Positions 57,363-60,647 of a stretch of DNA of 64,000 bases are shown here, one piece after another. Positions within the stretch are counted from its first letter, which is position 1. Each line of letters starts with the position of its first letter. The notes below the pieces were generated by a model. The model ran no database searches, had not been told where the DNA came from, and was given only the letters and a program-made list of their open reading frames with translations. The DNA comes from Gemmatimonadota bacterium (GTDB taxonomy: Bacteria; Gemmatimonadota; Gemmatimonadetes; Palauibacterales; Palauibacteraceae): the NCBI GenBank assembly GCA_049668445.1, contig JBATJK010000179.1, positions 10,567 to 74,566 of the forward strand, in the 5' to 3' direction. A program made the position numbers and the translations under genes.

Positions 57363-60300
57363 TCAGAATGCCGGGAGCAAGCTGAACTGGAAGAACCAGC
57401 CCTTGTCCGGACGCGTGATCGGATTCACGAAGTCCAGTTCCATGATGAGGAAGCCCAGAAGGTTCAGCCGCGCCGCAATTCCCACGCTGGCCACGACCTC
57501 GCTGCAATTCACCAGGATAGTCTGCCCTGCGCTCCCGTTGCAGCTCATCCTGGGCGTCACCCCGTCGCGCCACGCCACGCCCGCGTCGAAGAACGGCGCG
57601 ATCTCGACCGGAGGCGCTCCGGCCGACGGAATCACGCCGAAGAAACCGAGCAGCGGAATCCGGTACTCGAAGTTGGTCGACAGGATTCGCGTACCGAACA
57701 GGTTGTTGAACACGTCGCACGAGGACACTTCCGTGGACTGTCCGCATTCCTGGGCGCTGAACGATCCGTCGGAGAAACCTCGAATGATCGACGGATACCC
57801 GAGATACAGATCCGACAGCACGCGTACGTTCTCGTACCCCGGAACGGGGTTGTCGCTGATGTCCCCCCACCTGGCTTGCGAATCCGACCCGTACCGACCG
57901 AAGTGCATGATCCGGAACGCGAACGTGGTCGGCCGCACCGGCATGATGTATCTCCGGAAGTCCGCGAGGGCCGTCACGTAGTTCAGGTCCCCGACACGCG
58001 GCGAGACCTCGAACCGATAGCGCTGCCCGAGGATCGGTCCCGTGCCTCCGAAGATGGTGTTGTCATATACGAGAGCGGCCGCCGCGGTGCCCATGTTCAG
58101 GGAGCCCGGCGAAGGAAGTTCCACGGTTTCCCGGCTGACCTCAGCGCCGGAGAACGACAGCTCGCTGGTGCGAACCTCGTTATGGAAGTCGATCCCCTGG
58201 AATCCGGCCGTCAACTCGATCCGGTTCGCCCGGTTGATCGGAAAGCTGAAACCACCCGAGGCTATGCGATTCACCTGCCACTCGCGCAGTTCGGTCTCGA
58301 CGTACACGCCGTTCGCGTTGTCGACCCGGAGTCCGAACCGTCGGGTCACGTAGGGAATCTGGCCGATCTCCGCATTCCAGTTCCAGCGAGTGCGTCGGTT
58401 TTCGTATCCGACCACCAGCGCAGAACTCCGGAGCAAATTTCCGTTGGCCGTGTTGATGTTGAACAGGGTGCTCAGGTTCCGGTTGCCGAGCATGTCGCTG
58501 AAATAGAGCGAAATGCCGCCGGCCAGAAACGCCCCGTAGCGGTCGGCACCGGCCGCAAGCTGCGGCTGGCTCACATAGTCCAGCGTGATTCCGGGACTGT
58601 AGTCGATGCTCCCGAACGTCAGCGTGTCGGCCAGGCCGAGCTCGGGCTCATCGAGGAGCACGCTCACCAGGCCGGGCGAGCGATCCTGCGGAGGCAGCAT
58701 GGCAGGGCTGAGGCCCGCGATCGCCTCCTCGATCGGCTGCCCATCCAGGTCGGCTTGCGCGTCGATCCGGTACAGGTTGTAATCGCCGCGCTCGAACGCC
58801 GTGTACACGAGCCGATTCGCCCCGTGCGCCGAGGAAATAGCAGGACTGAGTGCCGTGATCCCGCTCACCCCGGTGACGAGGTCCGTGACCTGGTACAGGT
58901 TCCCGCCCTGGAATTCGTAGCGGTAGACGTTGCTGATCCCGCTGACATCGGTGACGAAGTAGAGGCTCTGGCCGTCCGGGGCCCACTGCGGGTCGATGTG
59001 CTTGCCCACGCCGAACACGGGCATGGCCTGGATCTCGCCGCTGGACGGGTCGATCAGGGCGAGCCGGTAGTTGCCGTAGCTGAGCGTGGCCAGGTCAGTC
59101 GAGAATCGGTCGGTCACGAACGCGATCGCGCCGCCATCGGGCGACCAGGAAGGCTGCAGGTCCGAGTAGAAGTCGGAGGTCAATCGGCGCAGTGCTTCGG
59201 TCTCGATATCCAGGATGAACAGGTCCGTGTAGCCGTTAACGATCGCCGCAAACACCACGCTTCGACCGTCGGGAGAGAACGAGGGCGTGTAGACCTCGCC
59301 CAACTCCGGGAACCGGACCTCCTTCACCTTCTTGCCCGTCTCGGCCTCGATGATCGCCAGCGCGGGACGACCCTGGATGACGACCCCGAAGGCGAAGTGC
59401 TGCCCGTCCGGGCTCCACGCGCCGGACGAATTGATGAACTGGAGGCTCTCGAAGTGCGAGTCCACGGCCGCCTTGGTGAGGCGACGGATGGTCTTGCCCG
59501 TCTCGGCGTCCGCCAGGAACATCTCGATGGCGAACAGGTCCTTCTCTGAGAGGAACACGACCCGTGAGCCGTCCGGGCTGATCGACGGCCCTATGTTGAG
59601 CCCACCTCCGCCCATCTTCTGCGAGATCAGCTGCGTCGCGTTGCCGTGCTGAGGCAGTGGCGGGAGATCTTTCAGATCCGGGATCCCCCTCTCCTCGTCG
59701 GGAGCACCGGGTTCCTCACCCGGCTCAGCATCCGGGGCATCCGGATCGACGAACGCGAAGTTCGCCCGGTCGCCCAGGGCATCCTCGGCCACGGAGGCGT
59801 AGGCATCGTAGATGGCCTGGTGCCACTCGGCCTCCAGCTGCGGGATCGGGATCTGGAGCACGGCTTCGAGCGCCTGCTCCGGGTTCCCGGACTGGCCGGC
59901 GACCTTGAGCGCCTTGCCGACGGCCTCGTCTCCCCACTTCCCCGCCACGAACGCCCAAAAAGCCTGGCCCCACCGGTACGGGAAGAACTCCCACTGCCGG
60001 GTCGTCAGGTCGCGCAGCGTCGGGAGACGACAGTTGCACGCCGCCGCGTCCCGCATCCACATGGCCGTATGGGCGTCGACCGGACCGACCGACAGGTACT
60101 CGGCCATCCCCTCGATGAACCACAGCGGGAGAAGAAGCGCCGTCGGACCTCGAAAACCGATCCCACCGTCGCCCGTCAGGCTGGTGATGTCGAACTGGAA
60201 CGCGTGGACGAGCTCGTGCCCCAGCACGTGGTCCGACTCGGCCAGGGTGCCGGCAAGCGGAAGCACGATGCGTCGCTTCAGCACCTCCGTCACACCACCC

Positions 60301-60647
60301 GTCGACTCGCCGAGCTGCCCGAACACGGCGTTGGTCTGCTCGAAGTCGGGGTGGCTGGCGTACAGGATCAGCGCCTGGCGACCCTTGAGCTCGTGATCCA
60401 GCAGGCGACCGATGCGAGCGTACCAGCGTTCCGCCATGCGGCCGGCTTCCCCGATGATGCTCTCCATCTCGGGGTAGTAGTAGATGTCGAAGTGCTCGGT
60501 CTGCAGGACCTCGGTGTCAAAGGTCTTGTACTGGACCTTGTTGCGACCGAAGTACTGAGCGTCGGCTGAATCCGGCAGGGTGGCCGCTCCCAGCAGGAGC
60601 GTCAGAAAAAAGAGCAGTGCCCTCGAGACGAACGGGCCACGTGTCAT
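57363..60647 (-). CDS. Large outer-membrane-associated fusion protein: N-terminal HExxH metallopeptidase-like domain + TolB-like beta-propeller + C-terminal Omp85/surface-antigen D15-type beta-barrel
   Basis: Signal peptide from the Met at 60647 (GGAGG RBS); HELVHAFQFD zinc motif; four or more TolB-type repeats (WSPDGQHFAF, FSPDGRSVVFAA, WSPDGGAIAFVTDR, WAPDGQSLYFVTD); C-terminal about 350-aa beta-barrel ending ...FQFSLLPAF. Confidence 0.7.
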   Translation of the reverse strand: MTRGPFVSRALLFFLTLLLGAATLPDSADAQYFGRNKVQYKTFDTEVLQTEHFDIYYYPEMESIIGEAGRMAERWYARIGRLLDHELKGRQALILYASHPDFEQTNAVFGQLGESTGGVTEVLKRRIVLPLAGTLAESDHVLGHELVHAFQFDITSLTGDGGIGFRGPTALLLPLWFIEGMAEYLSVGPVDAHTAMWMRDAAACNCRLPTLRDLTTRQWEFFPYRWGQAFWAFVAGKWGDEAVGKALKVAGQSGNPEQALEAVLQIPIPQLEAEWHQAIYDAYASVAEDALGDRANFAFVDPDAPDAEPGEEPGAPDEERGIPDLKDLPPLPQHGNATQLISQKMGGGGLNIGPSISPDGSRVVFLSEKDLFAIEMFLADAETGKTIRRLTKAAVDSHFESLQFINSSGAWSPDGQHFAFGVVIQGRPALAIIEAETGKKVKEVRFPELGEVYTPSFSPDGRSVVFAAIVNGYTDLFILDIETEALRRLTSDFYSDLQPSWSPDGGAIAFVTDRFSTDLATLSYGNYRLALIDPSSGEIQAMPVFGVGKHIDPQWAPDGQSLYFVTDVSGISNVYRYEFQGGNLYQVTDLVTGVSGITALSPAISSAHGANRLVYTAFERGDYNLYRIDAQADLDGQPIEEAIAGLSPAMLPPQDRSPGLVSVLLDEPELGLADTLTFGSIDYSPGITLDYVSQPQLAAGADRYGAFLAGGISLYFSDMLGNRNLSTLFNINTANGNLLRSSALVVGYENRRTRWNWNAEIGQIPYVTRRFGLRVDNANGVYVETELREWQVNRIASGGFSFPINRANRIELTAGFQGIDFHNEVRTSELSFSGAEVSRETVELPSPGSLNMGTAAAALVYDNTIFGGTGPILGQRYRFEVSPRVGDLNYVTALADFRRYIMPVRPTTFAFRIMHFGRYGSDSQARWGDISDNPVPGYENVRVLSDLYLGYPSIIRGFSDGSFSAQECGQSTEVSSCDVFNNLFGTRILSTNFEYRIPLLGFFGVIPSAGAPPVEIAPFFDAGVAWRDGVTPRMSCNGSAGQTILVNCSEVVASVGIAARLNLLGFLIMELDFVNPITRPDKGWFFQFSLLPAF

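Follow-up and report, generated by a model that had tools for sequence, protein, structure and literature searches.

A WD40-like Omp85 protein from Gemmatimonadota with a predicted gluzincin-type peptidase domain and a TolB-type propeller

In a 64,000-nucleotide stretch from a Gemmatimonadota bacterium of the family Palauibacteraceae (GenBank assembly GCA_049668445.1, contig JBATJK010000179.1, positions 10,567 to 74,566; hereafter the window), the minus-strand gene at 57363–60647 encodes a protein of 1094 amino acids (aa) that joins a signal peptide-like N-terminus to a peptidase domain of predicted gluzincin type, a six-bladed TolB-type β-propeller and a C-terminal barrel of predicted Omp85 type. 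The protein is a member of the WD40-like Omp85 subfamily, assigned by matching its architecture with published tables. Our favoured interpretation, held with moderate confidence, is a self-anchored, periplasm-facing outer-membrane metallopeptidase whose propeller would capture or filter unfolded envelope polypeptides. The original prediction, drawn from the letters of the DNA alone, had described a 1094-aa fusion of an HExxH peptidase, a TolB-type propeller and an Omp85-like barrel; the gene proved real, with an ATG at 60647 that yields exactly this length, all three domain calls hold, and its suggestion of a 'self-anchoring outer-membrane protease' makes a reasonable account of function. Its implied novelty did not survive, as the architecture was catalogued in 2014 as a WD40-like Omp85 with TolB-like and aminopeptidase-like modules (PMC4104836); the protein adds one further member to that family and no new principle.

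Homologues align over the full length of the protein at identities ranging from 96% down to about 30%, and the locus is therefore a real gene and not a chance open reading frame (ORF) in GC-rich DNA. One homologue, 64% identical, is found in 'Ca. Carthagonibacter metallireducens'. The listed ORF (57363–60839, minus strand) is longer than the gene as assigned here. A Shine–Dalgarno-like GGAGG read in the sequence (60654–60658, minus strand) lies 6 nucleotides 5′ of the ATG at 60647, and in the alignment this start agrees with the N-termini of homologues, which begin MTRGP.... A start at 60839 was rejected: it overlaps the end of rlpA and comes without a ribosome-binding site, and homologues begin MTR.... 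A scan for promoters and terminators returned zero promoter-like sites and about as many terminator-like sites as chance would give. The last residues of the protein are ...LLPAF. A full-length AlphaFold2 (AF2) model built on an alignment of 102 sequences (mean predicted local distance difference test score (pLDDT) 80.8, predicted template-modelling score (pTM) 0.75) divides it into an N-terminal sheet-plus-helices region at about 45–298, a disordered linker at 299–337, the propeller at 338–628, a second linker at 629–704 and 16 strands within 705–1092. All conservation counts below refer to 90 family members, that is, the protein itself and 89 further representatives at 30–50% identity.

No other part of the protein is as conserved as the N-terminal domain (residues 31–298; 59754–60557, minus strand): its mean identity is 48%, whereas the propeller has 41%, the barrel 34% and linker 629–704 25%, which favours a working enzyme over a relic. 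Its HELVH zinc-binding and catalytic motif (residues 144–148; 60204–60218, minus strand) lies in a predicted helix at 135–155. The next helix but one in the model, at 175–187, carries PLWFIEGMAEY (residues 174–184; 60096–60128, minus strand), with E179 as the candidate third zinc ligand and also E183. H144, E145, H148, E179 and G180 are each present in 90/90 members, E183 in 88/90 and Y224 in 89/90. The HExxH motif is thus accompanied by an invariant candidate third ligand in a predicted helix as well as by a gluzincin-like fold. PLWFIEGMAEY resembles the 'W-x-x-E-G-x-A-x-Y' or 'EG-AEY' helix, the form in which M1 and M9 peptidases present their glutamate zinc ligand. Thirty residues lie between H148 and E179; the M1 spacing is HExxH-x18-E. 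About 26 residues before HExxH, the flexible loop ESTGGVTE (residues 114–121; 60285–60308, minus strand) is conserved (G118 in 89/90, T120 in 88/90 and E121 in 85/90) and has a pLDDT below 50 both in the full-length model and in a separate AF2 model of the N-domain (pLDDT 80, pTM 0.80); it is a candidate substrate-binding edge loop.

Foldseek searches of the PDB with the N-domain model retrieved the M1 enzymes IRAP, ERAP1/2, LTA4H and tricorn factor F3, the M9 collagenases ColG and ColT, and M61 and M30 peptidases, the best matches having an expectation value (E) of 2e-3 to 0.1, a probability of about 1 and a query-normalised template-modelling (TM) score (TMq) of about 0.5. Nearly all of the top 50 PDB matches belong to M1, M9, M61 or M30, mostly at a probability of 0.85–1.0 and a TMq of 0.35–0.53. 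On the basis of this model, the N-domain adopts a thermolysin-like, gluzincin-type (clan MA(E)) fold. Pfam matches are weak by comparison of sequence, with BSP, Peptidase_M9 and DUF6055 all sub-threshold and Peptidase_MA_2 appearing in addition in homologues; Peptidase_M9 scores 14.8 bits (E 0.018), below its gathering cut-off of 26. The pattern G.MEN, corresponding to the GxMEN exopeptidase motif of M1, was not found in the protein sequence. Because GxMEN is absent and the M9 profile stays below threshold, we treat the N-domain as a separate gluzincin family that looks to lie outside M1 and M9.

Upstream of the folded domain, residues 1–30 (MTRGPFVSRALLFFLTLLLGAATLPDSADA; 60558–60647, minus strand) form a putative signal peptide of typical appearance in the translation, with probable signal peptidase I cleavage between ADA and Q; it has no lipobox cysteine. 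In most of the 90 family members the conserved block begins 15–35 residues from the N-terminus. Cleavage at this site would expose QYFGRNKVQY (residues 31–40; 60528–60557, minus strand) as the mature N-terminus, a peptide that is near-invariant family-wide (F33 in 89/90, G34 and N36 in 90/90) and that is modelled as disordered, with a pLDDT below 50 in the full-length and N-domain models alike. It could be a docking or autoinhibitory element.

Peptidase domain and propeller are separated by an acidic, proline-rich disordered linker (residues 299–337; 59637–59753, minus strand; pLDDT below 50 at 306–321), an insert confined to close relatives (at least 59% identical to the protein) and absent from the rest of the alignment. 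Assignment of residues 338–628 (58764–59636, minus strand) as a six-bladed TolB/PD40-type propeller is secure. Pfam PD40 matches five stretches (E 3.7e-23), TolB is the match in the PDB both by sequence (E 1e-17) and by Foldseek (E 4e-11), the model has about 24 strands at a pLDDT of about 90, and five [WFI][SA]PDG repeats occur at residues 356–360, 411–415, 457–461, 501–505 and 555–559. With the TolB equivalog model TIGR02800 the match is limited to the propeller region, and its 122 bits fall short of the cut-off of 343. The window contains one other PD40-like propeller, in a 906-aa DPP-IV-type S9 serine peptidase (DPPIV_N plus Peptidase_S9; 38993–41713, minus strand); it is distant and not a paralogue, and no paralogue of the gene was found in the 64-kb window.

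The C-terminal domain (residues 705–1094; 57366–58535, minus strand) is, as modelled, an Omp85-type barrel with 16 strands between 705 and 1092 and a very long loop between strands 11 and 12. In Foldseek it matches dozens of BamA barrels (E about 2e-9, probability 1.00, target-normalised TM score (TMt) 0.52–0.57, about 440 aligned columns). Both Omp85 signatures are present: IIRGF (residues 954–958; 57774–57788, minus strand) aligns onto VRGF of BamA, and FFDAG (residues 1019–1023; 57579–57593, minus strand) onto FWDMG. Across the family, GYPSLVRGY aligns to BamA GGSSTVRGF and FFDAGVAW to FWDMGTVW, and the model places IIRGF in loop 6 and FFDAG in strand 13 (1014–1026), as in BamA. R956 and G957 are each conserved in 85/90 members, F1019 in 85/90, D1021 in 86/90 and G1023 in 80/90, and the last residue is F, W or Y in 86/90 (here F1094). 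The cysteine pair C968/C977 aligns with the loop-6 cysteines of Escherichia coli BamA. This pair occurs in only about 55/90 family members and varies between lineages.

Sequence profiles recognize the barrel less readily. Pfam PF01103 gives no match to the protein itself at E ≤ 1, and it matches 9/19 full-length homologues (best E 3.6e-10) and appears in many precomputed annotations; a profile of the C-terminal region against E. coli BamA among PDB sequences reaches E 0.006, a marginal value useful mainly for aligning motifs. The linker that joins propeller and barrel (residues 629–704; 58536–58763, minus strand) is the least conserved part of the protein and is modelled as short helices and short strands, with a pLDDT below 50 at 697–709. 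A sequence search for POTRA (PF07244) found no match in 19 family members at E ≤ 0.1, and a degenerate POTRA within this linker is possible. Absence of POTRA is also a feature of the Omp85 subfamilies noNterm, Metallo and WD40-like.

The Omp85/TpsB superfamily was split into ten subfamilies, one of them termed 'WD40-like' (Heinz & Lithgow 2014, PMC4104836). In that study, Table S2 describes the WD40-like cluster as PF01103 with one to five PF07676 repeats, and Table S3 lists Phyre2 matches for about 95 members, including C1A6X2 of Gemmatimonas aurantiaca: BamA/TamA for the barrel (4k3b, 4c00; confidence about 100), TolB for the propeller (2w8b, 2ivz; about 100) and, in a column headed 'best aminopeptidase hit', M1 aminopeptidase or M9 collagenase (1z5h, 4kxd, 3qnf, 4ar1, 4ar9; about 99), with POTRA entries absent for the cluster. 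The main text takes up the propeller alone, suggesting a BamA–BamB-like fusion, and leaves the peptidase to the supplementary column (PMC4104836). A decade later, the metalloprotease, WD40-like and patatin-like Omp85 subfamilies were still said to 'have not been well characterized' (Hanson et al. 2024, PMC11116518).

The family is broad. Two short motif patterns were found in at least 583 species-representative genomes. The best 80 of these, nearly all full-length and three cut by contig ends, come from Gemmatimonadota, Acidobacteriota (Vicinamibacterales, Bryobacterales, Terriglobia and Aminicenantes), Eisenbacteria, Calditrichia and Bacteroidota, and Table S3 adds Myxococcota and Rhodothermus (PMC4104836). 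A profile of the N-domain retrieves 5570 clusters at 50% identity with E ≤ 1e-3, 1169 of them with E ≤ 1e-30. In nearly all of the top 150 matches the domain occupies about residues 25–285 of a protein of 1000–1100 aa, the shorter entries being apparent fragments, so that the peptidase domain essentially marks this architecture.

How might such a protein work? After Sec export and removal of the signal peptide, the C-terminal 16-strand barrel would insert in the outer membrane, leaving the approximately 675 residues before it, the gluzincin-type peptidase and then the six-bladed propeller, in the periplasm. The barrel would tether this peptidase–propeller module to the outer membrane on its periplasmic side, where the propeller would bind or filter unfolded or extended polypeptides and pass them to the HExxH+E active site. 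Likely substrates would be unassembled or damaged outer-membrane or periplasmic proteins or peptides. Propellers of S9 peptidases and of tricorn admit only unfolded chains or oligopeptides, and the TolB-type propeller is a peptide- and protein-docking platform; because propellers act in these two ways, cleavage of unfolded or extended envelope polypeptides is the likeliest job for the protein, although peptidase activity, the part played by the propeller and the class of substrate are all assigned here by what we infer from its domains. In every studied Omp85 that we know of, the pre-barrel region is periplasmic. We infer a periplasmic orientation by analogy, because the pre-barrel region lies in the periplasm in these proteins and in PlpD, whose patatin domain is exclusively periplasmic and not secreted (Hanson et al. 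2024, PMC11116518).

Several observations weigh against this interpretation. The N-domain matches known structures at modest strength (TM about 0.5, E about 1e-3), and its profile gave no match among PDB sequences. Literature searches returned no functional study of, or experiment on, any member of the WD40-like subfamily. The near-invariant peptide 31–40 and the conserved loop 114–121 are unaccounted for by the proposed mechanism. The barrel, too, keeps the loop-6 (L6) and strand-13 motifs, which are functionally important in BamA and FhaC, and because these BamA-type motifs are retained the barrel may be more than an anchor. In a more elaborate but improbable version, a barrel with a BamA-type gate and loop 6 would capture β-signal clients or extended polypeptides and feed them to its own peptidase, with the N-terminal QYFGxNKVxY docking or autoinhibiting; the protein would then be an outer-membrane 'degradase' or processing machine, complete in itself and a covalent counterpart of BAM plus BepA.

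The gene lies in otherwise ordinary housekeeping chromosome, with gyrA, leuS, a UvrA-like gene and fumC (the last recognized by eye from its translation) elsewhere in the window. Directly upstream is rlpA (60772–61485, minus strand), encoding a DPBB lytic transglycosylase fold with a SPOR domain (Pfam DPBB_1 E 1e-24, SPOR E 2e-11); the gene directly downstream encodes a small Phage_holin_4_2-family membrane protein (56939–57298, minus strand; Pfam E 2.4e-33), and two genes downstream is a 381-aa baeRF-family (bacterial archaeo-eukaryotic release-factor-like) protein (55713–56858, minus strand). A DUF302 protein is also among the neighbours. A phage origin, suggested by 'holin-like', was rejected, as this is only the Pfam family name of a four-helix membrane protein and the window is chromosomal. 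We compared synteny across 80 related loci, using crude greedy ORF calling and clustering. rlpA lies directly upstream in 16/80, the holin-like gene directly downstream in 12/80 and baeRF nearby in 6/80, all in Gemmatimonadota, down to about 44% identity, and the synteny with rlpA and the holin-like gene includes Palauibacter. In other lineages the adjacent genes are unrelated and differ from locus to locus (BNR/sortilin, aminotransferase, Glu/Leu dehydrogenase, TrkA and nitroreductase), and beyond the Gemmatimonadota-only synteny no operon partner conserved across phyla was found among the 80 loci. As no neighbour is conserved across phyla, the protein appears to work alone, which fits a self-contained protein. 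The rlpA and holin-like genes highlighted by the original prediction are present as it described, and their synteny within Gemmatimonadota is real; counts of 16/80 and 12/80 do not extend to a functional link across the family, and the association with rlpA is at most a lineage-specific hint.

Three other regions of the window drew our attention. Three adjacent plus-strand ORFs at 28476–36322 (650, 683 and 1018 aa) carry multihaem cytochrome c motifs, with matches including Cytochrome_C7, c3, Paired_CXXCH and an MtrC/MtrF-like domain, and two of them are fused to cytochrome b561-type membrane domains; they may form an extracellular electron-transfer module. A 712-aa ORF at 5068–7206 (plus strand) is a putative gene with no Pfam match at E ≤ 1e-5. 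At 54388–55518 (plus strand), a 376-aa protein with a twin-arginine-like N-terminus (MKRRDFVS...) has weak matches to the glycosyl-hydrolase-like families DUF4015, GHL10 and GHL6.

Three further explanations compete with a periplasm-facing peptidase. The protein could be displayed at the surface, its barrel translocating its own peptidase and propeller so that extracellular proteins or peptides are degraded for nutrition. Such self-translocation was once proposed for type Vd autotransporters, and the family is common in phyla that degrade polymers and proteins (Gemmatimonadota, Acidobacteriota, Bacteroidota, Calditrichia, Myxococcota and Rhodothermus); the barrel still has the L6 and strand-13 motifs that translocating Omp85s use, and a few loci have amino-acid catabolic neighbours (aminotransferase and Glu/Leu dehydrogenase), although at just 4–6/80. 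We nonetheless find surface display improbable. We know of no Omp85 shown to export a cis-linked folded passenger, the roughly 600 residues of peptidase and propeller would need to cross unfolded, and the mechanistic precedent has gone since PlpD, the original example, was re-examined and its enzyme domain placed in the periplasm (PMC11116518).

An envelope or division factor is likewise unlikely. Under this explanation the propeller would dock on a Pal/OmpA-type lipoprotein or on peptidoglycan, and the peptidase would trim tethers or cell-wall peptides together with RlpA, whose SPOR domain is septal. TolB proteins are indeed the closest relatives of the propeller, and the order rlpA–gene–holin-like is kept in the Palauibacter-containing set of 16 and 12 of the 80 loci, to about 44% identity. 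This synteny is limited to one Gemmatimonadota lineage, however, with unrelated neighbours in other phyla; the N-terminal domain of TolB and the tol-pal context are both absent, TIGR02800 falls far short of its cut-off (122 against 343), and the 124-nucleotide gap between rlpA and the gene is neutral on co-transcription. Very unlikely, in our judgement, is the role in outer-membrane protein assembly put forward in the main text of PMC4104836 by Heinz and Lithgow, that of a BamA–BamB-like fusion with the propeller as scaffold and a barrel that inserts or folds clients, proteolysis being secondary or absent. The barrel does keep both Omp85 signature motifs and a BamA-like loop-6 cysteine pair. 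Against this, POTRA was not detected in the 19 members searched and has no entry in Table S3 (PMC4104836), the propeller is of TolB-type PD40 and not of BamB type, and it is the peptidase active site that is best conserved (90/90), which one would not expect of a mere scaffold.

Omp85 proteins are core machines of outer-membrane biogenesis, and to our knowledge nearly everything understood about them stems from POTRA-bearing members. The WD40-like branch is large and spans Gemmatimonadota, Acidobacteriota, Bacteroidota, Myxococcota and others with a perfectly conserved active site. Its substrate and the side of the membrane on which it acts would tell whether an Omp85 scaffold has been reused as an enzyme anchor, as in PlpD, or whether barrel gating is coupled to proteolysis. 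The gene itself would not surprise a specialist; the family is a tractable subject.

Compared with known systems, the protein is closest to the WD40-like subfamily, with which it shares the same three-part build and from which it shows no architectural difference, our own domain assignments agreeing with Table S3. With TolB it shares the six-bladed PD40 propeller, for which TolB is the best PDB match by sequence and structure, but the N-terminal α/β domain of TolB that regulates TolA/Pal is missing and a peptidase stands in its place, the tolQRA-tolB-pal gene context was not found around the gene, and TolB is soluble whereas this protein is predicted to be barrel-anchored. BamA and TamA have in common with it the 16-strand barrel, the L6 (V/I)RG(F/Y) and strand-13 FxDxG motifs, the loop-6 cysteine pair and the C-terminal aromatic residue; they differ in that the protein has no detected POTRA and carries an enzyme and a propeller before the barrel, and the sequence similarity of its barrel is marginal (profile E 0.006, with PF01103 missing the protein). 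M1 and M9 gluzincins likewise combine HExxH with a downstream Glu in an 'EG-AEY'-type helix and a β-sheet plus helical fold, whereas the protein lacks GxMEN, scores sub-threshold for M9 and has no PDB match by sequence, its nearest Pfam families by sequence being BSP, Peptidase_MA_2 and DUF6055. A functional analogy to the proposed mechanism comes from BepA at BAM, a zinc metalloprotease that works at an Omp85 barrel on outer-membrane protein substrates (PMC13655028). Unlike the peptidase here, which is fused and of a different family, BepA is a free-standing M48 protein that has TPR repeats and docks non-covalently. PlpD of Pseudomonas aeruginosa has a patatin lipase and one POTRA, whereas this protein has a zinc peptidase, a propeller and no detected POTRA; PlpD likewise joins an N-terminal hydrolase to an Omp85 barrel and provides the best experimental analogy for topology.

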